A DNA stretch of 64,000 bases from Thermoanaerobaculia bacterium. Lineage in GTDB: Bacteria > Acidobacteriota > Thermoanaerobaculia > Multivoradales > SZUA-115. The notes beneath the pieces are model-generated. The model saw nothing but the letters and a program-made list of their open reading frames with translations. It did no database searches and was not told where the DNA came from. The DNA lies in assembly GCA_046331405.1 (NCBI GenBank), contig JAXLQX010000010.1, forward strand, positions 50,551 to 114,550. The letters are read 5' to 3'. The translations under genes were made by a program, and so were the position numbers. Below, one piece after another: positions 3 to 10,707 of this stretch; within the stretch, counting starts at the first letter, position 1, and each line of letters starts with the position of its first letter.

Positions 3-1424
3 CTCGAAGAGCTGGCCTTCGCCCTTTCCCAGGGCGCTGGTGCCGGGGCCGTGCCGGACACTCTCCAGGGCCTGCTGGCGGCGCGCATCGACCGCCTGCC
101 CGCCGAGGAGAAGCGGCTGCTGCAGATCTCCTCGGTGTTCGGCCGGGAAGTCTCGGTGGAGCTGCTGCAGAGGATCTACCCGGAGCCCGACGCCCTGGCA
201 GCGAGGCTCGAGGAGCTGCAGCGCCGGGAGCTGCTGCTGGTCTCGCCGGAAGCCGGGCCGGGGATGCTGCGCTTCCACCATGCGCTGGTCAAGGAGGTGA
301 CTTACCAGAGCCTCTTGCCTAGCCGTCGCCGCGCCCTTCACGGCGCCCTGGCCGAGGCCCTCGAAAGCCTCTACGCCGGGCGCCTCGAGGAGGTCTACGA
401 CCGGCTGATCTACCACTTCCCCCGTGCGGGCGAGCCCGCCCGCACGGTGCACTATCTGCGCCTCTTCGCCGAGCGGGCCGCAGCCCAATACGCCCACCAG
501 GAGGCCGCCGCGGCCCTCGAGCAGGCACTCCGGGAGGCCGCTGCCCTGCCCCGGCAGCCAGGCGCCCGGCTGCGCACCGAGCTCCGCCTGGAGCTCGCGG
601 AGTCGCTTTTCCCGCTCACGCGCTTCCGCGACACCCTCGAGGTGCTCGAGGCCGGGCGGGCCGATCTCGAGGCCTGTGCCGAGCCGCGCTTGCATGCCCA
701 GCACCATTTCTGGCTGGCCCACACCTACACCTACCTGGGGGACTCCGGCGCCACCCGCGAGCATGCCCAGATTGCCGTCACGGCGGCCGAGGAGGCGCAC
801 GACGAGGTGACCGCCGGCAAGGCCCACTACGTGCTCGGCCGCGACGCTTTCTGGACCGGCCAGTACGCCCAGGGCCTCAAGCACAGCCTGGAGGCGGCGG
901 TGCTGCTCGAGAGGGGCGGCGAGGCCTGGTGGCAGGGCCAGGCCCATTGGGTGGCCGGCTTCAACCATTTCGGCCTGGGCGAGCTCGGCCAGGCCCGCGA
1001 GGCCTTTCTGCGCACCCAGCGCATCGGCGAGGCGCTCGACGACTACCGGCTGGACCCTTCCTGGTCCCTCGGCTTCCTGCTCACCAGCCAGGGCGACGTG
1101 GCAGCCGGCCTCGCCCAATGTCGCCGCGCCGTGGCCCGCGCCCAGGACTCGCTCAACCGCGCCGTGGCCCTGGGCTTTCTCGGCCACAGCCAGCTCGCCG
1201 CCGGCGAGCCGGCCCAGGCGGTGGTGAGCCTCAGCGAGGCCACGGCCACTCTCCGCCAGGCCGGCATGCAACAGCTGCTCGCCTGGCTGGGCGCCTACCT
1301 CGCCCAGGCCCACCGCGCCCTCGGCCAGGCCGAAGAAGCCGAAGAGATCGCCGAAGAAGCCCTCGAAGCCGCCCGCGGCGCCGGCTTCCCGTTCGGCGAG
1401 GAGCTGCTGCGAGGGGGGCGGTAG
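3..1424 (+). CDS. STAND/AAA-type regulator, C-terminal TPR-rich part (5' end lies outside the window)
   Basis: The frame is open from the window edge (LEELAFALSQGAG... precedes the first Met). It contains LLAARIDRLPAEEKRLLQISSVFGREV followed by long Ala/Leu/Glu helical repeats. This arrangement is found C-terminal to the NTPase domain in MalT/LuxR-type and cyclase-associated AAA-TPR proteins. Confidence 0.7.
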   Translation, partial: LEELAFALSQGAGAGAVPDTLQGLLAARIDRLPAEEKRLLQISSVFGREVSVELLQRIYPEPDALAARLEELQRRELLLVSPEAGPGMLRFHHALVKEVTYQSLLPSRRRALHGALAEALESLYAGRLEEVYDRLIYHFPRAGEPARTVHYLRLFAERAAAQYAHQEAAAALEQALREAAALPRQPGARLRTELRLELAESLFPLTRFRDTLEVLEAGRADLEACAEPRLHAQHHFWLAHTYTYLGDSGATREHAQIAVTAAEEAHDEVTAGKAHYVLGRDAFWTGQYAQGLKHSLEAAVLLERGGEAWWQGQAHWVAGFNHFGLGELGQAREAFLRTQRIGEALDDYRLDPSWSLGFLLTSQGDVAAGLAQCRRAVARAQDSLNRAVALGFLGHSQLAAGEPAQAVVSLSEATATLRQAGMQQLLAWLGAYLAQAHRALGQAEEAEEIAEEALEAARGAGFPFGEELLRGGR

Positions 1425-1445
1425 GGAAGTGCTACCGTTCAGGCC

Positions 1446-1676
1446 GTGTTGGAAATCGCGAATCTCGAGGAGCCGGAGTGGGTAGCGTGGTACCTGCTGA
1501 GCCCCCAGGAGCGCTGGGAGGAATCGGCCCGCCTCTGGCACCACTACCTGGCGATGGGAGGCTCCCTTGATCCCGAGCCCGATTCGCAAAGCCCTTTCTA
1601 CGATCCGGCAACATCGAGTCGCCCACCTGTTGATGGGCGGCCAGGCCTGCGTGTTGTACGGCGCAGCGGAGTTTAG
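1446..1676 (+). CDS. small hypothetical protein (possibly a decayed partner of the following fragment)
   Basis: This is a GTG-initiated 76-codon ORF. The first two-thirds (EEPEWVAWYLLSPQERWEESARLWHHYLAMGGSLDPEPDSQSPF) has normal composition. The tail looks like read-through. No function can be assigned. Confidence 0.3.
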   Translation: MLEIANLEEPEWVAWYLLSPQERWEESARLWHHYLAMGGSLDPEPDSQSPFYDPATSSRPPVDGRPGLRVVRRSGV

Positions 1677-1752
1677 CCGCGAACTCGATCTGGTTTCAGT
1701 TGCTCTGAGATCTCGGGCTAACCGGAGCCGGTGGAGAAGAGAAGTCCCAGCC
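1567..1752 (+). pseudogene. truncated nucleotidyltransferase-like fragment
   Basis: A TTG-initiated frame reads IPSPIRKALSTIRQHRVAHLLMGGQACVLYGAAEFSRELDLV. This resembles the N-terminal GG...(S/T)xDLDL nucleotide-binding element of small MNT-type nucleotidyltransferases. Sensible sequence ends after about 45 residues, and the rest runs antisense into the permease 3' end. Confidence 0.25.
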
Positions 1753-4185
1753 TCACTCTCCCCGGATCGAGCGGATCGGGTCTGCCTCGGTGGCACGGCG
1801 GGCGGGGAGGAGGCAGGCGAGGGCCGCTACGGCGAGGAGGGCGAAGGTGGCGCCTACGAAGGCGAGCGGCTGCACGGTGGCCACCCCGGAGAGCTGGCTG
1901 GTCAAGGTCTTGGAGAACGCCGCCGCCAGCGCCCCGCCCACGAGAGCCCCCACCAGGCAAAGGCGTAGGCCCTGGCGGAGCACCAGCTGGAGGATCTCCC
2001 CCTTCTGGCTGCCCAGGGCCAGGCGGATGCCGAACTCCTGATGGCGAGTTGAGACAGTGTAGGTCAAGAGCCCGAATAGGCCAGATAGGGCTAAGCCCAC
2101 AGCCAGCGCAGCAGCGCCCGCAATGAGCCAGGCTATGAAGCGGAGGCGAGCGAGTGAGTCAGAGAGGATCTCGTCGCCGGTCCTCACCCGTGCGATCGGT
2201 AGCTGGGAGTCGAGGGCACGAACGAGCCTAGCTACTGCAGGGACGAGGTTGGAAGGAGGCAAGCTTGATCGGACGACCAGGCTGAACTCCAGAGAAGGCC
2301 ACTGCCTGTAAGGGAAATAGAGCTCAGGCTCGGGTGGTCTCTGAAGTCCGAGGTTGTGAACGTCGCCGACTACTCCAACCACGGTGGTCCAGCGTTCAAG
2401 AGAGCCTGGCAGTCCAAGAGCCAGATGGGTGCCAATCGGGTTGACATCGGGCCAATAGCGCCGGGCCGCGGCCTGGTTTACGACCGCGACAGGCGGCGAG
2501 CCAGACCAGTCCCCGCGCGCAAACGACCGGCCAGAGAGCAAGGCAACTCCCAGAGTGCGGAAGTAGTCATCACTGACGCGTCGGATCTCGGCGAAGGGAA
2601 GCTGGTCGCGCAGGCCCGGTGGCGGCGGATCGATTTGGAAGTTGCTGTTGTGCCCGGCTTCCAAGACCGGCAGCAGATCGATCAGGCCCACCTGTTTCAC
2701 TCCGGGCAGTTCTCGAACCGTATCGAGCAAGTCGCCAGAGAACTCCGCCATGCGGTCGGCCGAACTGTACGAATCTTCGGGTAGAACGAAGCGAAGGCTA
2801 TGCAGGTCCCGCGGTTCGAAACCGGGAGAAACTCGCCTCAGCGCCAGTAGATTGCCGACCAACAGGGTCGAACTGACGAGAACCGCCTGCGCAAGCCCCA
2901 CCTCTGCTATTGCCAGGGCGTTCCGCAGTCTTCTCCCGGTAGAATCGATTACTCCGTGAGCTCGCAACCCTCCCCCATCTTCAAGCCGTCTCGAGTAGAC
3001 CAAGGCCGGCGCTAGCCCACATAGTAGAGCCGCCGCTCCTGAGACGAAGGCAGAAGCAAGCGCCACCTGCCAGTTCAGGCTCGACTTGGCTAGTGCGGAG
3101 CCGCCCAGTGCGAGCAAAGGTCTGAGGAACCGAAGTGCCAGGGAGCTAGCGGTGAGTCCAATGAGAGTTGCAGGGATCGCAAGGACCAAACCGTCGCTGA
3201 GCAGCTCTGCAATCAGGCGGGTCCTAGATGCGCCCAGAGCGGCCCTCAGTTTGAGCTCCCGACTTCGCCCGGCGGCCCGCGAGAGCAAGAGGCTCGTTGT
3301 ATTGCCGCAGCTGATAGCGAGAACAAGTAGTGCTGCGAAGCTGCAGACTGCTAGTGGCAGTTGGACCTGGCCGTAGATCGCTTTTCGCAAGCCGAGAACT
3401 CGCACGCCACCCCATCGCATCGTATCTGGGTACTGGCGCACGATTTCGTCCGTGATCGCACTGAGCTCTTGTTGGGCAATGGAGGGCGTTGACCCAGGAG
3501 CTAGCCTTGCGATGACGGAGACCCAGTGATCTCCTCGCTGAACCCTGCGAGGTCCTTGGAGCACGAGAGGGCGCCAGGCGAGAGCGCTTGACGTGAGCGG
3601 AAGCTCGAACTCCGGCGGCATGACGCCGACGATCGTACAGGGACGTCCATCCAGTTGGAGCTTCCTGTCGAGCACGGCTGGGTCTGAAGCGAAGAGATCG
3701 CGCCAGAGCGAGTTGCTGATCAGGACCACGTTGTCTTGGCCGGGTAGCGCTTCGTCATCGTTGAACTGCCGCCCTAGCAGCGGCTGAGTACCCAGGACCC
3801 GTAGCAATGAAGGCGTAGCGAGAGCTCCTCGCAGGTAGCGAACGCCGTCCTCCGTGCCAATTCGGAAGTCGTGACTTGCGTATGCTCCGAACTCCGCAAG
3901 CGAGCGACTGGCGCGCTGCCAGTCTGCGAAGTTGGGAAGCGAAACAGCCCCAATGCCGGTACGGCCTTCGTAGGTGAAAGTCTCGAAAACCTGCACCAAT
4001 CGCCCGGGGTCGGCGTATGGAAGAGGAGCGACTAGGGCGAGCTGGAGCAGACTAAGCACCAAGCTCGCTCCGGCGACGCCCAGACCCAAGGAACCTCCGG
4101 CCGCAAGATCCATTCCAAAGCGAAGCCGGCGTAGTGTCGCTCTCAAGTGACCTAGGTACACCGATCTTTGCCTGCTCTCGTTCAT
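1753..4185 (-). CDS. ADOP-type duplicated FtsX/MacB-like ABC transporter permease (orphan, no adjacent ATPase)
   Basis: This is an 810-aa ORF with an ATG start. It has an N-terminal TM helix, a large extracytoplasmic domain and a 4-TM FtsX-like block, and this module occurs twice. The N-terminus (LGHLRATLRRLRFGMDLAAGGSLGL...) is typical of acidobacterial duplicated orphan permeases. Confidence 0.85.
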   Translation of the reverse strand: MNESRQRSVYLGHLRATLRRLRFGMDLAAGGSLGLGVAGASLVLSLLQLALVAPLPYADPGRLVQVFETFTYEGRTGIGAVSLPNFADWQRASRSLAEFGAYASHDFRIGTEDGVRYLRGALATPSLLRVLGTQPLLGRQFNDDEALPGQDNVVLISNSLWRDLFASDPAVLDRKLQLDGRPCTIVGVMPPEFELPLTSSALAWRPLVLQGPRRVQRGDHWVSVIARLAPGSTPSIAQQELSAITDEIVRQYPDTMRWGGVRVLGLRKAIYGQVQLPLAVCSFAALLVLAISCGNTTSLLLSRAAGRSRELKLRAALGASRTRLIAELLSDGLVLAIPATLIGLTASSLALRFLRPLLALGGSALAKSSLNWQVALASAFVSGAAALLCGLAPALVYSRRLEDGGGLRAHGVIDSTGRRLRNALAIAEVGLAQAVLVSSTLLVGNLLALRRVSPGFEPRDLHSLRFVLPEDSYSSADRMAEFSGDLLDTVRELPGVKQVGLIDLLPVLEAGHNSNFQIDPPPPGLRDQLPFAEIRRVSDDYFRTLGVALLSGRSFARGDWSGSPPVAVVNQAAARRYWPDVNPIGTHLALGLPGSLERWTTVVGVVGDVHNLGLQRPPEPELYFPYRQWPSLEFSLVVRSSLPPSNLVPAVARLVRALDSQLPIARVRTGDEILSDSLARLRFIAWLIAGAAALAVGLALSGLFGLLTYTVSTRHQEFGIRLALGSQKGEILQLVLRQGLRLCLVGALVGGALAAAFSKTLTSQLSGVATVQPLAFVGATFALLAVAALACLLPARRATEADPIRSIRGE

Positions 4186-4485
4186 TTCGCACGCACCGGA
4201 ACTACCGCTCCCAGCTCGAAGAGGTGACTGTGGTTCACGCGCTAGCCCACGAGTATAAAGCCTCGAGCCAAGGTCCGCAGTCCAACACGCCTTGGGTCAA
4301 TAAATTTCCGCTATAGGGAGTAGCGTTCAGGGCCGTGGTCAAGCAGGTACTCGAACTGTGGTCGCCCGTCTGGCTGCGCACCTCAGGGTTCGGGTTCCGG
4401 CTGGTGGGCGGAAACTGGTTAGCCCGCGTCAAGAAGGGCTGCGTGGAGGGGCAGATGAACGCAAGGGCGACCGATACAACACAGT

Positions 4486-4510
4486 CACCCCGAGACGCCC
4501 TCTCGGGGTG
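4486..4510 (-). terminator. hairpin terminator downstream of the precursor peptide gene
   Basis: There is a perfect 10-bp stem, CACCCCGAGA / TCTCGGGGTG, with a 5-nt loop. It sits about 55 nt after the precursor stop. On the minus strand it is followed by ACTGTGTTGTAT, which is only moderately T-rich. Confidence 0.5.
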
Positions 4511-4565
4511 ACTTCAGAAGAACTCGGCTCCAGTTGGAGAGTCAACGGCTCTAGAGCCACGTGAA

Positions 4566-4727
4566 CTACAGTGCAACTTCCTCAGCAGGAGACTTCGGTG
4601 CACAGGGGCAGCCGCAGTTGCAGCCGCTGTTGCCAGCCGCTCCGCCGGCGACATCGTCGAGATCGCCGTCGCTTACCTCGGTTACTTCCAGGCTTGCAAG
4701 CTCGTCTTTGGGATCCGTGTCGCCCAT
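4566..4727 (-). CDS. RiPP precursor peptide with a double-glycine leader and a Cys-rich core (53 aa, not in the ORF track)
   Basis: My translation is MGDTDPKDELASLEVTEVSDGDLDDVAGGAAGNSGCNCGCPCAPKSPAEEVAL. The ATG lies 5 nt after AAGGAGAA, and that RBS overlaps the TAA stop of the upstream radical SAM gene. The leader is acidic and ends in DDVAGG. The core contains CNCGCPC. A hairpin follows downstream. Confidence 0.75.
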   Translation of the reverse strand: MGDTDPKDELASLEVTEVSDGDLDDVAGGAAGNSGCNCGCPCAPKSPAEEVAL

Positions 4728-4738
4728 AGCACTTCTCC

Positions 4739-6286
4739 TTACGCTCTTGTACCCGTAGGTACGGTGGTGGAGTAACCGGTCAGATCGGCAATCGGCCTGA
4801 CCGAATCGTCAGCTTCGGAAGCCGAGGTCTCGGCAACAGGGAGAGCGAGCTTCCGCCCTGCATCGCGCTGAGAAGCGACCTGGCGCATTTCTGACTTGAA
4901 GTTGGCCCGAGTCCAAGTGCAGGGGGACTTGTCCGTCTCGAAGCGCTCAAGCGGACAGGACATCCCCAGGCAGGTGGGCAAAATCACGCATTTTTGGCAC
5001 TGTTGGTCACTCTCAAAGGCTGGTTCAGTCCAGAGTGCAAAGCGATCTAGGTCGAGCTTGAGCTCACCGTCCTCGTTCAGGGAGCCGACGACGTTCCGAG
5101 GATTCTTGTCGAGCTCGACTGTACACTTCATCACCTTGCCTGTGGCTCCAATGATGAAGTTGTAGGGTCTGGCTGCATAACAGACGTCAGCACCGAACCG
5201 CTGCAGTTCAGTCAGTCCGTCCGTAACGCTGAGGCCGCGCAATTGCGCTTCCTTGGTGAGTTCCTTTCTCAACTCGATGCCGTCGCGGTAGCCGCAGACT
5301 TGAAGATTCGCATCGTTGTCGCCGCCCCAGCGACCTACAGGCCTGAAGCGCAGCTTGTACCGTGGATCACTACTCAGCTCAGACTGAACAAGATCCAGAA
5401 ACGAACCGAGATGGGGATAGCTCTGCGGATTGAAATTCACGCGCAAGTCGACGGTGAAGTCCTCCTGGCGCTGGTGAAGCGAGACCAAGTTGGTCAGGAT
5501 GGTGTCGAAAGTCCCGCTGCCATCACGGGCAGGTCTGCTCTGGTTGTGGAACTCCGCTGGACCGTCGAGCGTGATCTGGTAGTGGAGGATTCTCCACGAC
5601 AGGAGCCGCTCAGCTACTTCCGGGGACAGCAGGTAGCCGTTTGTAGTCATCTTGCTGTTGAAGGCGAGGCCATTCTCACTTGCCAGATCGTGGAAGAATG
5701 GGGCGAGGTCGTCGATCGCCTCGATGCCGTAGAGAGGTTCGCCTCCGAACCAGTTGACAGCCAAGCTGGTTAGGGCGGGAAGGCGCTTCAGGGTTAGGTT
5801 CTTGATGCCGTTTCGGACCCACCGCTTCATGGTGCCGCGAGCGAAGTCCTCATAGCAGTAGGTACAGCGGAAGTTACAGTCTTCGGAAGAAAGGAGGATA
5901 AGTTGAAACGTATCGGTGCGAAATTGTTGCTGGCCGAAGCGAATCCGAAGTCGGCGATACTCATCGGCTCCCTGAGGGACCACGTAACCCTTGGTCGAAA
6001 GGTAATGCACCACTCCTGAGTCTCTTGCCTCGAAACCCTCGCGCACGAGCAGTCGCTCGACCGTTTCCTTGTCCTTGCGTGAGAAGATGCACATGGCACC
6101 AGAAAAGGTGTTCCAGAGTACGAGTCTGCCGTCCTCGGTCGTGGCGCGCACGGTGTAGCGGGAGGGCAGCCACCTCTGGGTGCGACCTCGAGCAGCGTCG
6201 ATCGCCGGCTCCGCATGTGCATTGGAGGCGAGTTCGTAGGGGGACTCTCTGAGGATGTCGAATTTTGTGGAAAGCCCTAAAGACAT
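4739..6286 (-). CDS. radical SAM/SPASM-domain peptide maturase with an N-terminal RRE-like extension
   Basis: It carries the CNFRCTYC (CxxxCxxC) cluster motif and a GGEP motif. The C-terminal region is Cys-rich (CYAARP...KCTVE...CQKCVILPTCLGMSCP...C), as in SPASM/twitch auxiliary-cluster domains. A leader-binding-like segment of about 110 aa precedes the core. GAGGAG lies 6 nt before the ATG. Confidence 0.9.
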   Translation of the reverse strand: MSLGLSTKFDILRESPYELASNAHAEPAIDAARGRTQRWLPSRYTVRATTEDGRLVLWNTFSGAMCIFSRKDKETVERLLVREGFEARDSGVVHYLSTKGYVVPQGADEYRRLRIRFGQQQFRTDTFQLILLSSEDCNFRCTYCYEDFARGTMKRWVRNGIKNLTLKRLPALTSLAVNWFGGEPLYGIEAIDDLAPFFHDLASENGLAFNSKMTTNGYLLSPEVAERLLSWRILHYQITLDGPAEFHNQSRPARDGSGTFDTILTNLVSLHQRQEDFTVDLRVNFNPQSYPHLGSFLDLVQSELSSDPRYKLRFRPVGRWGGDNDANLQVCGYRDGIELRKELTKEAQLRGLSVTDGLTELQRFGADVCYAARPYNFIIGATGKVMKCTVELDKNPRNVVGSLNEDGELKLDLDRFALWTEPAFESDQQCQKCVILPTCLGMSCPLERFETDKSPCTWTRANFKSEMRQVASQRDAGRKLALPVAETSASEADDSVRPIADLTGYSTTVPTGTRA

Positions 6287-6443
6287 GAGGAGCTCCTCGC
6301 TTCATGGACGACTTCTAAAGGGCAGTGAGTTGCCTTCGCAGTGGTCTGGCTGGCGTTGGGAAGTTTTGCAGACAATTGGCAGAGGCTGACATACGGGTGC
6401 GTGCCCGATGCACAGAACAGGGGGCTTGGGCAGGAAGTGCGGC

Positions 6444-7688
6444 TCATGCGGAAAGCGCCTGCCTACGGAGCGGGGAGTCGGAGAGGAGCGGAAGGAAGAC
6501 TTCGGAGCGCGCGAGACTTCTTACGTGATCAACAAGTCGGTCTCTGTTTTCGGCGACGGCTTGTCCGTGGAGCTCGCACGTAAGGCGCTCGAGCAGAGCA
6601 TCTGTATCGAGGCCTTCGAGAAGGCCACGGAAGAGTACGCGGTTGGTCTGGTTGAACTCGAAACCGATGATCTCCTTGCCCGACATGCGCTCCACTGCCT
6701 CTTCGATCGTCGTCAGTGGATCAACATCGGGGTGCTGTTTCCGCACCACCTCCAGGATCGCGGTGCGGTCCGGGAAGAGCATGAGCAAGGCCAGGAGATA
6801 GCGAGCTTGAGGGTCGGAGACCTTGCCCCGCAGGGAGGTGATGATGCGAGTTCGGCGCTCCCAATCGCAGGCTTCGCGGAAGATCTGGATGGGTTCACCA
6901 TAGAGTCGCTCAGCGTGCTCGTAGAACTGAGCGAGCAGGGCAGGATCCGCCTTCCGGCGCGTCAGTAGCGAGAACATGGCCAAGAGGGTTTCGAGGTCTC
7001 CACTTTCGACCAGCTGGTGAACGCGATCCTGGAGTCCCCCCAGGTGGCCGCGGAGCATTGCTTCCAAGAAGAGCAAGCGGCGGGCTCGGAGAGGGTCGTA
7101 GGCCTCGTGATCGACTGCCAGCCCAGGCAGAAGGTACTGGTACTGCGGTAAGTGATCACGATCCACGTATGTCCGAACCACGACTGTTACGGATGGAACC
7201 TCGAGGTGGAAGAGCTGATGGATGAGCCGTGAGCCGGAGTAGATCTCTCGAGTGTCTCCAGGGCCGAGGACCTCGGTCGAGGCTCTTTCGAGGGCGCCCA
7301 GGATGAGTCGCGAGTTAACCTTCTGGTGCGTGTGGAAGTGCCAATGGCTGTGTACACTGCCTCCAGCAAGCACCGAGAAGGCTCCGGTAAAGGAGTGCTC
7401 GTGAATCTCGGTGGTAGCTGAGTGCCAGAAGAGTACTTCGATGAAGAATCGCGGTGCCTGGAAGACCATGACTGGCGGTTCGCCGAAGAGGCTTCGGTTG
7501 GCGGGCTGATTGAGTCCCTGTCCCCGAGCGAAAGTCCAAGAGACGATCTCTTCGACCTTGATGTGCTGGGCAGGTGGCAGCTTCTCTAGCTCTGCCACCG
7601 CAAGGCGCGGAAAGACTTCTTCGTCATAGCTGTGATGCAGCCACTGCAGCTCGATCCGGGCCCCAAGATCCTGGAAGTAGGGGATCAT
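6444..7688 (-). CDS. cupin-like protein (3-His, thiol-dioxygenase-like motif) with a C-terminal helical domain of about 220 aa
   Basis: It starts at internal ATG 7688, with GGAGGCGAGG 4 nt upstream. TTEIHEHSFTGAF is followed 59 residues later by GSRLIHQLFH. This resembles the xIH(D/E)H...H metal site of cysteine/thiol dioxygenase cupins. The C-terminal half is helical and carries no motif I recognise. Confidence 0.55.
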   Translation of the reverse strand: MIPYFQDLGARIELQWLHHSYDEEVFPRLAVAELEKLPPAQHIKVEEIVSWTFARGQGLNQPANRSLFGEPPVMVFQAPRFFIEVLFWHSATTEIHEHSFTGAFSVLAGGSVHSHWHFHTHQKVNSRLILGALERASTEVLGPGDTREIYSGSRLIHQLFHLEVPSVTVVVRTYVDRDHLPQYQYLLPGLAVDHEAYDPLRARRLLFLEAMLRGHLGGLQDRVHQLVESGDLETLLAMFSLLTRRKADPALLAQFYEHAERLYGEPIQIFREACDWERRTRIITSLRGKVSDPQARYLLALLMLFPDRTAILEVVRKQHPDVDPLTTIEEAVERMSGKEIIGFEFNQTNRVLFRGLLEGLDTDALLERLTCELHGQAVAENRDRLVDHVRSLARSEVFLPLLSDSPLRRQALSA

Positions 7689-7819
7689 TGGACCTCGCCT
7701 CCGCTCCCGGCCCGAAGGGCGGAGCCGGGCCTGTCGAAAAGTAGCGACTGCCGGTAACACCCTTGACTGGAGACTTGCCGAGTCTTCCCGCTAGGTCTAC
7801 ACAAAGCTCGCGCAGGCAC
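7685..7819 (-). CDS. candidate 44-codon small ORF translationally coupled to the cupin gene
   Basis: GTG 7819 lies 7 nt after AAGGAGGA. The product is MPARALCRPSGKTRQVSSQGCYRQSLLFDRPGSALRAGSGGEVQ. Its TGA stop overlaps the cupin ATG (ATGA). GC3 is about 64% by hand count. Support is the strong RBS plus the coupling only. Confidence 0.25.
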   Translation of the reverse strand: MPARALCRPSGKTRQVSSQGCYRQSLLFDRPGSALRAGSGGEVQ

Positions 7820-8141
7820 AGGAGCTTCCTCCTTGCTGAGGAGAGACCTGAGGTCTGAAAAAAGCCAAGTGTAGTTTGAGAGAAGTGCAGGAATGTGTCA
7901 AGAGGAAGAGGAAAGATAAGTAGAGCGTAAAGAGTCGAAAATTAAGATATATAGAAGTATGTTTCGAGAGTCCTCTGGTTGACGTGGCCGCGATGGCAGC
8001 TCTGTGACCGTTAAGCTGATGTGCCTATCGGTGCACCTGCCACGGAGCAGGCTTTGTGCAGAAGGCGTTGTTCAAGCGGTTCCCAACTTCGTGGCGAGAG
8101 GGCGACGCCAGGGCAAGCCCGAAGTGAAGGCTCGAGGGCGT

Positions 8142-9209
8142 TCATTGCGACGCAGCTCGCTGGCTGGTGGCTGCCGCCGGAACAGGACTCGGCAGACCCC
8201 TGAAGGCCAAGTAGGCTTTGGCCTGTCCCCGCCCCACCTTCACATGGCTGAGCGCCCTCACCAGATGGCTGCTCTGGCCGATGGCTTCTCTTGGCCAGCG
8301 TTCGGGGGCTTCGAGGAGCGTTTCCGTTCCTGGCCAGTGGAGGAGGGCTTGGGCTTTTTCGTCGCAAGCCAGGCCTTGTTGAACGAGGTGGCGAAGGAGG
8401 CTCGACCACCGGGGTTCCCGGGGTGGTTGGTGGCGGAAGGAGGCTTCGAGGCCGGGGTGGGGGAGGATCTCGTCCCCATTCTCGCCGCCCAAGTCGAAGG
8501 AGAGGTGGCAGCGGTCGGCCCGGGGGAGGAGAGGGAGGAGCTCCTGCAGGCTCCGGACGGCGGCTTCGGGGCCGATTCGGCGGAGGGTTGAGAGAAGGAG
8601 GGCCGAGTCCTGGCTGGCGAGCTCGAGGCGGAGGGGTTGGCCGGGCCGGGAGGCGAGGTGGAAGAGGTAGAAGAGCTGCACGCCGGGAGGGAGGGCTTCG
8701 AGGCAGCGCTCGAGGAGCCGAGCTTCCCGGCCGCGCGTTCGGCGGCCGCGAAGGGCCGGCACCAGGACCTCGACGAGCCAAGAGGCTGGCACCGGGTCGG
8801 CGAGGCGGGCGCAGAGGATCGGCGGCGGTGCCGGTGTGGCGCCGGGAGGCAAGTCCAGCTCCAGCCAGAGGGCTGAAACCGGGTGGGGAAAGCCGAGCTC
8901 CTGCCAGCCTCCCCGGAGCAGGCGCTCGAGGGACGGAGAGCCGCTTGAGAGCTGGACTTGCGCGGCCTCTCCCGGATGCGCGAGGCGGGCGGCGAGGTCC
9001 ACCTGGGGTGCGCCAGTGGCGAGCCGGAGCTCGAGAATGCCCAGGCAGCCGGGTGGGAAGCTCTCGGCCGCAAGAGCCGCCTGCTCGAAAGCGGCCTTGC
9101 TCACCAGGGTGGGCGGCAGGTGGGGGCGGCAGCAGCGGAGCCAACTTGCCAGGGAGAAGGGCGCGGTGTCGGGCTCCGGGCGGGCGGGAGCGAGCGGCTT
9201 AGCCTCCAC
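8142..9209 (-). CDS. hypothetical protein, candidate tailoring enzyme for the Nif11-type peptide (start uncertain: GTG 9209 or ATG 9272)
   Basis: This is the only frame in 8.0-9.3 kb with balanced amino-acid composition and strongly GC-biased third positions. Its 5' end overlaps the 3' end of the upstream precursor gene. It shows five hairpin-like strand pairs alternating with helical segments (see findings). I recognise no catalytic motif. Confidence 0.65.
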   Translation of the reverse strand: MEAKPLAPARPEPDTAPFSLASWLRCCRPHLPPTLVSKAAFEQAALAAESFPPGCLGILELRLATGAPQVDLAARLAHPGEAAQVQLSSGSPSLERLLRGGWQELGFPHPVSALWLELDLPPGATPAPPPILCARLADPVPASWLVEVLVPALRGRRTRGREARLLERCLEALPPGVQLFYLFHLASRPGQPLRLELASQDSALLLSTLRRIGPEAAVRSLQELLPLLPRADRCHLSFDLGGENGDEILPHPGLEASFRHQPPREPRWSSLLRHLVQQGLACDEKAQALLHWPGTETLLEAPERWPREAIGQSSHLVRALSHVKVGRGQAKAYLAFRGLPSPVPAAATSQRAASQ

Positions 9210-9453
9210 CCCCGGTTCCCGGCGGAGGCGGATCACCGGTCCAGCCTCCGGCAACGTCTTCCAGTTCCTCATCCGACAGCTCGGTGGTGCTTTCCGCCAG
9301 GCCGCGGGCTTCGTCGAGGGTCAGGTGGAAGCCCAGGGACGCGGCGTGGGCCCTCCAGGCTTCTGCGTCGAGGCCGAGGGCCGAGAGCTGTTCGAGGAGC
9401 CGAGGGTCGGCGCGTAGGGCCGCGGAGAATCGGTCGAGGTCTTGAATGGACAT
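9199..9453 (-). CDS. Nif11-like leader peptide family RiPP precursor (84 aa)
   Basis: It starts at an internal ATG with GAGGAGGA upstream. The product is MSIQDLDRFSAALRADPRLLEQLSALGLDAEAWRAHAASLGFHLTLDEARGLAESTTELSDEELEDVAGG followed by the core WTGDPPPPGTGGGG. The layout matches Nif11-type leaders, which end in LSDEELExVAGG. Confidence 0.8.
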   Translation of the reverse strand: MSIQDLDRFSAALRADPRLLEQLSALGLDAEAWRAHAASLGFHLTLDEARGLAESTTELSDEELEDVAGGWTGDPPPPGTGGGG

Positions 9454-9558
9454 CTTCGAGTCCTCCTCTCTCGTTGATTCCGGAGAAGCTAGTATGCCAG
9501 AGAATCGCCGCTTTGACTCTCTCGGTTCGGCTTGACCCCTGGTTCGGGGGAGGGCATC

Positions 9559-10707
9559 ATGCGTGGGCTCGAATCCGAAGCCCGAGGTGCCCGGTTGAAC
9601 CGTGATGGCAGGCTGATCCCGACGATCCACCCGGACATTGCCCAGGCCGAGACGCTGCCGGGCTGGTTCTATGGCGATACCTGCGTGTACCAGCAGGCGA
9701 AGGAGCGCGTCTTCGCCCGCTCCTGGCAGTGGCTGGGAGACCTCGACCGCTTGAAGGTGCCCGGCCAGGTGTGGCCGATGGTGCTACTGGAAGGTTGCCT
9801 GAACGAGCCGCTGCTCTTGACCCGGGACACCCGAGACGAGATCCACCTGCTGTCGAACGCCTGCACCCACCGAGGCAACCTGGTGTGCGAGGGCGAGGGT
9901 GTGGAGCAGGTGCTGCGCTGCCGCTACCATGGGCGGCGCTTCGGGTTGGACGGCCGGTTTCTCTCCATGCCGGAGTTCGAGGGTGTGGCGGGCTTCCCGT
10001 CGCCGGTGGACGACCTTCCCGCCGTGCCCTGGCGGCGCTGGCGGAAGTTCCTCTTCGCTGCCGTGGAGCCGGCCTTCCCGTTCGAGGAGTGGCTCGCCGA
10101 GGTGGAGGCCCGGGTGGGCTGGCTGCCGATCGAGCAGGCCACGTTCGATGCCTCGCGCTCCCGGGACTACCTGGTCCAGGCCAACTGGGCGCTCTACTGC
10201 GACAACTACCTCGAAGGCTTCCACATCCCCTACGTCCACGTGGGGCTCGCTGGCGCCCTGGACTACGGTAGCTACACCACCGAGCTCTATCGCTTCACGA
10301 ACCTGCAGCTGGGGGTGGCGAGCGGTGGAGAGGATGTGTTCTCGCCGCCGCCCGGCCACCCGGATCACGGCAAGGCGATCGCCGGCTACTACTACTGGCT
10401 CTTCCCCAACCTGATGCTCAACTTCTATCCCTGGGGCATCTCGGTGAACGTGGTGAAGCCGCTCGGGCCGGAGCGCACCAAGGTCTCCTTCTTGACCTAT
10501 GTGTGGGACCCGGAGCGCCTCGACCGCGGAGCCGGCTCCTCTCTCGATCGCGTGGAGCGCGAGGACGAGGCGATCGTTGAGGCCACGCAAACGGGGGTGC
10601 GTTCGCATTTCTACGGCCGGGGTCGGTACTCGGTGAAGCGCGAGGAGGGGGTGCACCACTTCCACCGCCTGCTGGTGGCGGCCCTGGGCTCGGGCGGGAC
10701 CGGATGA
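9559..10707 (+). CDS. Rieske [2Fe-2S] non-heme iron oxygenase, alpha-subunit type
   Basis: The Rieske motif is CTHRGNLV...CRYHGRRF. The mononuclear iron motif is NWALYCDNYLEGFHIPYVH. It starts at ATG 9559, after GGGGGAGGG. The track's 9532 start is a TTG extension. Confidence 0.85.
   Translation: MRGLESEARGARLNRDGRLIPTIHPDIAQAETLPGWFYGDTCVYQQAKERVFARSWQWLGDLDRLKVPGQVWPMVLLEGCLNEPLLLTRDTRDEIHLLSNACTHRGNLVCEGEGVEQVLRCRYHGRRFGLDGRFLSMPEFEGVAGFPSPVDDLPAVPWRRWRKFLFAAVEPAFPFEEWLAEVEARVGWLPIEQATFDASRSRDYLVQANWALYCDNYLEGFHIPYVHVGLAGALDYGSYTTELYRFTNLQLGVASGGEDVFSPPPGHPDHGKAIAGYYYWLFPNLMLNFYPWGISVNVVKPLGPERTKVSFLTYVWDPERLDRGAGSSLDRVEREDEAIVEATQTGVRSHFYGRGRYSVKREEGVHHFHRLLVAALGSGGTG

Follow-up and report, generated by a model that had tools for sequence, protein, structure and literature searches.

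Prenyltransferases of the ABBA or PT-barrel fold that modify ribosomal peptides provide the closest described systems for the gene considered here, termed the barrel gene, which lies in a 64,000-nucleotide stretch of a Thermoanaerobaculia bacterium genome (GCA_046331405.1, contig JAXLQX010000010.1, positions 50,551 to 114,550 of the forward strand; hereafter the window) and overlaps the gene for a Nif11-leader precursor of a peptide that is made by the ribosome and modified after translation (RiPP). MppC is a soluble ABBA prenyltransferase (PT) that depends on a Nif11 leader and geranylates Trp at C5; it prefers a lanthionine-cyclized core and was placed with the cyanobactin PTs (PMC12715784, Dec 2025). 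According to section 2.3 of PMC13290415, which cites Hubrich et al. (Chem 2024), NctPC transfers geranylgeranyl to Trp, after which the chain is cyclized, and the enzyme is fused to an MstE-like cyclase. The cyanobactin F-family (PagF, LimF, KgpF and DciF, as well as the inactive PatF) combines the PT-barrel fold with peptide substrates; NphB/Orf2 and the DMATS-type enzymes have the same fold and small-molecule acceptors. The cyanobactin enzymes are leader-independent and mostly act on N–C macrocycles (PMC12715784). ComQ/ComX, as well as PalQ and ChrPC, are likewise relevant for comparison, and the ComQ-type enzymes are all-alpha proteins with an isoprenoid-synthase fold (PMC13290415, section 2.4).

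The product of the barrel gene is probably a Trp prenyltransferase that stands alone, is guided by the leader and modifies the precursor encoded by the overlapping gene. The logic proposed for this enzyme is that of MppC, namely a Nif11-type leader and one specific Trp, but the window cassette is without a macrocyclase and the window enzyme matches no Pfam or NCBIfam model. With the P domain of NctPC, matched on architecture only, members of the barrel family share an N-terminal barrel domain combined with a C-terminal MstE-like cyclase, whereas the window protein stands alone without a cyclase domain and is paired with a short, linear, Cys-free core. The identity between the window enzyme and the cyanobactin F-family was ~7–12% over the Foldseek alignments. 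NphB/Orf2 and the DMATS-type enzymes gave the best structural matches, with the same (alpha-alpha-beta-beta)x5 topology and with Lys, Arg and Tyr on the strands, but the profile comparison with Orf2 was negative, and the invariant residues differ (K119, N173, Y175 and R228 in the NphB family by native numbering, each two higher in the NphB/Orf2 alignment, as against E81, D92, WxExD, R215, H343, K345, K352 and Y354 in the window family). As in ComQ/ComX, the locus is a minimal pair of precursor and enzyme, and the predicted product is a short ribosomal peptide with a prenyl-Trp; given that the window model is a beta-barrel, and that no isoprenoid-synthase Pfam match was obtained, the system would work in a ComQ-like manner without being related to ComQ or to other enzymes resembling trans-isoprenyl diphosphate synthases, a group marked by aspartate-rich FARM/SARM motifs. 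The initial annotation of the window, made from the sequence alone, had regarded a Nif11 leader paired with a PT-barrel enzyme as a new combination. This was not borne out, because MppC (2025) and, as described in PMC13290415, NctPC (2024) had been published; what is new here is a stand-alone clade with a minimal cassette, tiny linear Trp cores and a STAND partner.

The positions of all features are listed in Table 1. Judged by its homologues, the barrel open reading frame (ORF) is a real gene and not a chance ORF: a word-indexed search returned 110 homologues at E ≤ 1e-3, and an exhaustive profile search returned 4,328 cluster representatives (50% identity) at E ≤ 1e-3, with 2,071 at E ≤ 1e-30. 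None of the 110 homologues was functionally named ("hypothetical"), and the few with an organism given were from Acidobacteria, Thermoanaerobaculia and Sorangium. The 5' end of the ORF overlaps the 3' end of the precursor gene, whose TAA stop codon occupies 9199–9201, from any of the three candidate starts: by 74 nt from ATG 9272, by 38 nt from GTG 9236 and by 11 nt from GTG 9209. Use of GTG 9236 would yield a product of 364 aa, the same length as the database entry P0001. Given that the homologues can be aligned only from about residue 38–40, near which codons the conserved part begins, they do not fix the choice among the three starts. The ORF coordinates and the overlaps of 74 and 11 nt given in the initial annotation were exact, and the co-transcription with the precursor that it proposed is plausible, as the two genes again lie side by side or overlap in related loci.

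Table 1. Features of the window and of related loci, with the strand pairs of the barrel protein model.
Feature	Location	Strand	Remarks
PT-barrel (ABBA-fold) protein, predicted leader-guided Trp prenyltransferase	8142..9272	-	376 aa; fold model, Foldseek, homologues, signature
Candidate in-frame starts of the barrel gene	ATG 9272, GTG 9236, GTG 9209		GTG 9209 is codon 22
Nif11-leader RiPP precursor, 84 aa	9199..9453	-	PF07862 E 6e-9; TIGR03798 E 6e-13; orthologues in related loci
Core peptide WTGDPPPPGTGGGG, after VAGG	9202..9243	-	Single Trp; Trp codon 9241-9243 (W71)
beta1-2	residues 77-83 / 91-97 (376-aa numbering)		AlphaFold2 model
beta3-4	residues 132-139 / 152-157 (376-aa numbering)		AlphaFold2 model
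beta5-6	residues 199-205 / 214-220 (376-aa numbering)		AlphaFold2 model
beta7-8	residues 254-262 / 274-278 (376-aa numbering)		AlphaFold2 model
beta9-10	residues 335-347 / 350-361 (376-aa numbering)		AlphaFold2 model
P0239	L023 2353..4587		Barrel + MstE-like cyclase fusion
Family-related genes of L024	874..2028 and 5530..7431		
C-terminal TPR part of large STAND protein, cut by window start	51..1424	+	TPR_12, TPR_MalT
Large STAND protein	L006 8987..12598	-	
Cys-rich GG-leader precursor, MGDTDPKDELASLEVTEVSDGDLDDVAGG/AAGNSGCNCGCPCAPKSPAEEVAL	4566..4727	-	Directly downstream of radical SAM/SPASM gene
Radical SAM/SPASM maturase	4739..6286	-	Best match TIGR04463 1e-57, below its cut-off
414-aa protein, no Pfam match	6444..7688	-	55-60% identity within Thermoanaerobaculia
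Rieske/ring-hydroxylating oxygenase alpha subunit	9532..10707	+	Divergent from precursor

The structure of the barrel protein was predicted with AlphaFold2 on an alignment of 89 relatives, and the resulting model had a mean predicted local distance difference test score (pLDDT) of 94.8 and a predicted template modelling score (pTM) of 0.92. Its secondary structure is (alpha-alpha-beta-beta)x5, with two helices preceding each pair of strands. The initial annotation had pointed to five hairpin-like segments and, from their periodicity, had guessed at a PT-barrel; these segments match the strand pairs beta1-2 to beta9-10 of the model one to one, and the guess was upheld by the confident barrel prediction and the Foldseek comparison. 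When the model was compared with the PDB by Foldseek, ranks 1–42 were all ABBA/PT-barrel aromatic prenyltransferases, with a probability of ~0.9–1.0 for ranks 1–41. Among these 42 were NphB/Orf2, DMATS1, EpzP, AnaPT, FunA, CloQ, AtaPT, AmbP1, FamD1 and MpnD as well as the peptide enzymes LimF, KgpF, PatF and DciF, and the best matches were 1zb6 (NphB/Orf2; E 7.5e-7) and 8daz (E 2.1e-6). Beyond rank 42, proteasome subunits and porins were found at probabilities <0.2, and a Foldseek comparison with viral structures was uninformative. According to the predicted model, the barrel protein belongs to the PT-barrel superfamily at the level of the fold.

Across 132 diverse representatives of the family, fifteen residues are each kept in at least 94% (E81, D92, W136, E138, D140, R209, R215, D260, G274, E276, R339, H343, K345, K352 and Y354), which gives the signature E..D..WxExD..R..R..D..GxE..RxxxHxK..KxY. 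The conserved residues on the strands alternate (E81/R83, D92/S94/R96, W136/E138/D140, R215/E217, H256/S258/D260, G274/E276/S278, H343/K345 and K352/Y354), so that the conserved polar side chains would lie on one face of the barrel, presumably the lumen, in the pattern expected of an active site in that lumen. The conserved mixture of Lys, Arg, His and Tyr would also fit the binding of a diphosphate.

A connection with isoprenoid chemistry is provided by fused relatives. In P0183, P0193, P0201 and P0239 (712–744 aa), the barrel domain is N-terminal and the C-terminal domain matches SQHop_cyclase_C; with the family profile, the N-terminal halves gave E 1e-71 to 1e-80 over 320–330 positions, and proteins of this fused architecture retain every residue of the family signature. 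The C-terminal 348 residues of P0239 matched the monodomain class II terpene cyclase MstE with a phmmer E of 2.9e-82, and the acid motif is kept (VDADSTAW in P0239, GDADTTGW in MstE and DADST[AV]W in the fused cyclases). When the window protein was compared by BLASTP, it showed 29% identity to P0201 (E 5e-14, a full-length alignment of the N-domain) and 27% identity to P0239 (E 3e-18, over the C-terminal three-quarters); WLExD, GxE, SHxK and AKAY are among the family motifs retained where the sequences align. These alignments place the window protein within the family in which fusions to MstE-like cyclases occur. The other fusion partners found in the family were SAM (S-adenosylmethionine) methyltransferases and a 2-oxoglutarate-Fe(II) oxygenase. 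In one further locus (L024), a barrel domain is fused to a methyltransferase, and LanM, a free-standing cyclase-like protein and a Nif11-like lanthipeptide precursor are encoded alongside.

The presumed substrate is encoded directly upstream of the barrel gene. A GGAGGA Shine-Dalgarno sequence precedes the precursor ATG at 9453; the leader comprises residues 1–70 and ends in ...ELSDEELEDVAGG, and the core that follows is linear, Cys-free and of 14 residues with one Trp. W71 is the predicted site of modification. A C39 peptidase/ABC exporter was not found among the ten larger ORFs of the window to which the scan was applied.

In all, 22 related loci were retrieved, in part by a genome scan with an alignment of 13 closer sequences; 21 of them are distinct, as L002 and L004 are one contig. 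Those with an organism given were all metagenome-assembled genomes of Acidobacteriota (Thermoanaerobaculia and Holophagales). A Nif11-type precursor was present in all 21 distinct loci, and in 19 of the 21 it lies directly upstream of the barrel gene or overlaps it; the two exceptions are L001, with the precursor directly downstream, and L005, where the distance downstream is 1.6 kb. The leaders are alike (...ELSDDELDQAAGG) and the cores are divergent. Short cores (DNWPPA, AWPPP, DSWPPP, DGWPPS, EENWPPV, DTWPPA, DDNWPLP, WCGNELTTG and WTGG) were found as well as longer, Gly/Ser/Thr/Pro-rich ones (EDGWTPPPPPPPAE, WDGDTTGGSGGSGGG..., WPDGSDPSGSTTSGGGG, DTAWSPGSTTGS... and WTGDPDDPDNDPPPPPGTGG), and among the divergent cores one begins with WDGDTTGGSGG.... 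A single Trp at core position 1–5 is the sole constant residue in the 21 distinct loci and the window, which supports the earlier suggestion that the core Trp is the target.

L001 (ranges listed: 688..2401, 6884..9017 and 9189..9413) contains two tandem paralogues of the barrel gene and, besides its Nif11 precursor, whose core is the tetrapeptide WTGG, six short non-Nif11 precursors with GG leaders; the cores of these six have W-C-C, as in SSWCCDKAEAI and TSSWCCGPPAP. Genes matching Lant_dehydr_C, JmjC and P450 were also observed, and a C39 peptidase ABC exporter is located ~8 kb downstream of the barrel genes.

From these data a course of reaction can be proposed, in which we infer that a prenyl group is transferred, that the leader is required and what individual residues do. 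The soluble, stand-alone PT barrel would bind the Nif11 leader of the 84-aa precursor encoded directly upstream, and this binding would place W71, at the N-terminal end of the core (VAGG followed by WTGDPPPPGTGGGG), at the mouth of the barrel. An isoprenyl diphosphate would be held in the barrel by K345, K352, R215, R209, R339, H343 and Y354, with Mg2+ probably bound by one or more of D92, E138 and D140. The diphosphate would ionize to an allylic cation that alkylates the indole, and a protease or exporter whose gene lies elsewhere would then cut off the leader at the GG site, leaving a short prenyl-Trp peptide. The donor may range from C5 to C20. A mass shift of +68 Da, that is, a C5 prenyl group, had been named in the initial annotation as one to look for, among other shifts; no specific support for this length was obtained, and by analogy with the cyclase-fused relatives a donor longer than C5 is possible.

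Several observations weigh against this function. At E ≤ 0.1, neither Pfam nor NCBIfam gave a family for the barrel protein, no prenyltransferase Pfam family was found at E ≤ 1 among the 89 relatives, and sequence searches of the PDB (phmmer and hmmsearch, the profile being built on the 89 relatives) gave nothing relevant. By sequence models, the protein was not placed in the Orf2/NphB (PF11468), DMATS (PF11991) or LynF/TruF/PatF families, and an hhalign comparison of the barrel family with an NphB/Orf2 alignment, seeded from the NphB sequence (100% identical to 1zb6_A), gave a probability of 0.2%. Because this profile comparison was negative, equivalences with NphB residues (D92 with D62 and K352 with K284) are conjecture and are not claimed. 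The Foldseek TM-scores were 0.34–0.49 with a root-mean-square deviation of ~8–9 Å, which, together with the 7–15% sequence identity to the PT-barrel matches, suggests a divergent member of the fold that is no close relative of any solved enzyme. The lumen-facing residues were derived from the alternation along the strands, not from coordinates, and the predicted lumen, to which six near-invariant Asp/Glu residues are assigned, would be more acidic than is usual in canonical ABBA enzymes, which have fewer such residues. The window family is equated with that of the NctPC P domain from the matching architecture only. Moreover, no isoprenoid-supply gene was seen among the called genes of the three loci annotated with Pfam.

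Three other explanations were weighed. The PT-barrel fold might have been retained without prenyl transfer, in a PatF-like scaffold that binds the leader or the core, or in an enzyme that catalyses another reaction on the peptide. PatF has no known prenyltransferase activity, so that PT-barrel proteins of RiPP clusters can be inactive, and its presence among the Foldseek matches speaks for such a role, as do the modest TM-scores, the lack of profile similarity between the barrel family and known PT families and the acid-rich invariant set (E81, D92, E138, D140, D260 and E276). A scaffold is nevertheless considered unlikely, given that the fifteen conserved strand residues include five Lys/Arg, a His and a Tyr, which would be unexpected in a passive protein, and given the fusions of family members with a terpene cyclase of the MstE type, an enzyme that requires a prenylated substrate. 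NctPC, of like fused architecture, is also reported in PMC13290415 to be an active Trp prenyltransferase. If prenyl transfer is accepted, the acceptor might be a group other than the indole, such as the N-terminal amine exposed by cleavage, a Thr, Ser or Asp side chain, or a residue of the Pro/Gly-rich tail. The acceptors of cyanobactin-type PT-barrel enzymes include Ser, Thr, Tyr, His, Arg and Trp as well as N-termini (PMC12715784; PMC13290415), and the barrel protein of L024, a distant family member, is encoded next to a precursor with Tyr and Cys, and no Trp, in its core. Within the clade of the window gene, however, Trp alone is present in every core, and Asp, Thr, Pro and Gly vary or are absent; the cores AWPPP, WTGG and WCGNELTTG have only the Trp in common. 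A non-Trp acceptor is therefore regarded as quite improbable.

The remaining explanation assigns the modification of Trp to the radical SAM/SPASM enzyme encoded further along the same strand, with the barrel protein as its accessory. Radical SAM enzymes are known to cross-link Trp in other RiPPs, and the genes for the precursor, the barrel protein, the 414-aa protein and the radical SAM enzyme follow one another closely in this order on one strand. The radical SAM gene, however, has its own Cys-rich GG-leader precursor, and after this precursor a strong hairpin (13-bp stem) is located at 4513..4483. The trio of radical SAM enzyme, 414-aa protein and Cys-rich GG peptide recurs elsewhere (L025 and L026) with no called Nif11 precursor, and a neighbouring 350-aa gene of L026 is without the barrel-family motifs. 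Among the 22 related loci, a close homologue of the radical SAM enzyme was found only in L014 (52% identity), only distant radical SAM proteins (25–27%) were found in L009 and L016, and a homologue of the 414-aa protein was found in none. The GC content also differs, being 57–62% across 2000–8200 and 73% on either side, including the barrel gene, and an AT-rich gap separates the two units. On this evidence the radical SAM enzyme is highly improbable as the maturase of the Nif11 precursor, and the leader-guided Trp prenyltransferase remains the preferred assignment for the barrel gene. A fold and a testable function would thereby be assigned to a very large unannotated family. With two genes and a linear 14-residue core containing one Trp, the window cassette is about the simplest test case, and this simplicity makes it a convenient entry for donor length, regiochemistry and leader dependence in the barrel family; the cassette could also serve as a leader-guided tool for Trp lipidation.

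A gene for a large STAND protein, of which only the C-terminal TPR part falls within the window, accompanies the barrel gene in the related loci. Of the 22 retrieved loci, 21 have an orthologue (46–58% identity), as do 20 of the 21 distinct ones, and the STAND protein is better conserved across these loci than the barrel enzyme. The gene is mostly convergent with the barrel gene, on the opposite strand, and ends ~250–450 nt from the barrel gene end. In a full-length orthologue of 1,203 aa, a double zinc ribbon (DZR), AAA_16 and TPR were recognized, and the protein resembles TIGR03903 (TOMM kinase/cyclase fusion) at E 7e-85, below the cut-off of that model; a guanylate-cyclase homology region is also indicated by precomputed domain matches for L001 and L003. 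The tight linkage of STAND/TPR genes across the related acidobacterial loci suggests a signalling or regulatory role. As a tentative idea to which a low probability is given, Thermoanaerobaculia and related Acidobacteriota might use prenyl-Trp peptides for signalling, in a system made up of the Nif11 precursor with its tiny Trp core (often xxWPPx), the barrel PT and the convergent STAND protein of ~900–1,200 aa with its zinc-ribbon, cyclase-homology, AAA_16 and TPR regions. The peptide would then have its receptor, or a regulator of its own, in the TPR/STAND protein, whose output might be a cyclic nucleotide. Such a system, if real, would be functionally analogous to ComX/ComQ and built on an unrelated enzyme fold.

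The Rieske oxygenase gene, which diverges from the precursor gene, had no counterpart in any of the 22 related loci, and for this reason the oxygenase is probably unrelated to the peptide.

On the other side of the barrel gene, a low-GC island extends over ~1500..8200, in which the GC content at third codon positions is 0.68–0.70, compared with 0.81–0.94 in the flanks. It contains genes for a MacB/FtsX permease, the Cys-rich precursor, the radical SAM enzyme and the cupin protein of 414 aa, and no flanking repeats were found around it. In the window, the island separates the STAND/TPR gene from its usual neighbour, the barrel gene, as an insertion; with a Cys-rich precursor of its own, the low-GC pair of radical SAM and 414-aa genes constitutes a distinct RiPP module. 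A place for these two proteins in the barrel pathway was rejected on the basis of this separate precursor and terminator, the differing GC content and the lack of a close counterpart in nearly all related loci. The Cys-rich precursor is probably the real substrate of the radical SAM enzyme. The AlphaFold2 model of the 414-aa protein (pLDDT 88.8) consists of an N-terminal cupin domain and a helical C-terminal domain, and the cupin domain matched thiol dioxygenases (cysteine, 3-mercaptopropionate and cysteamine dioxygenases) with a Foldseek E of ~1e-6. Judged by this model, the 414-aa protein could be a peptide-cysteine dioxygenase.

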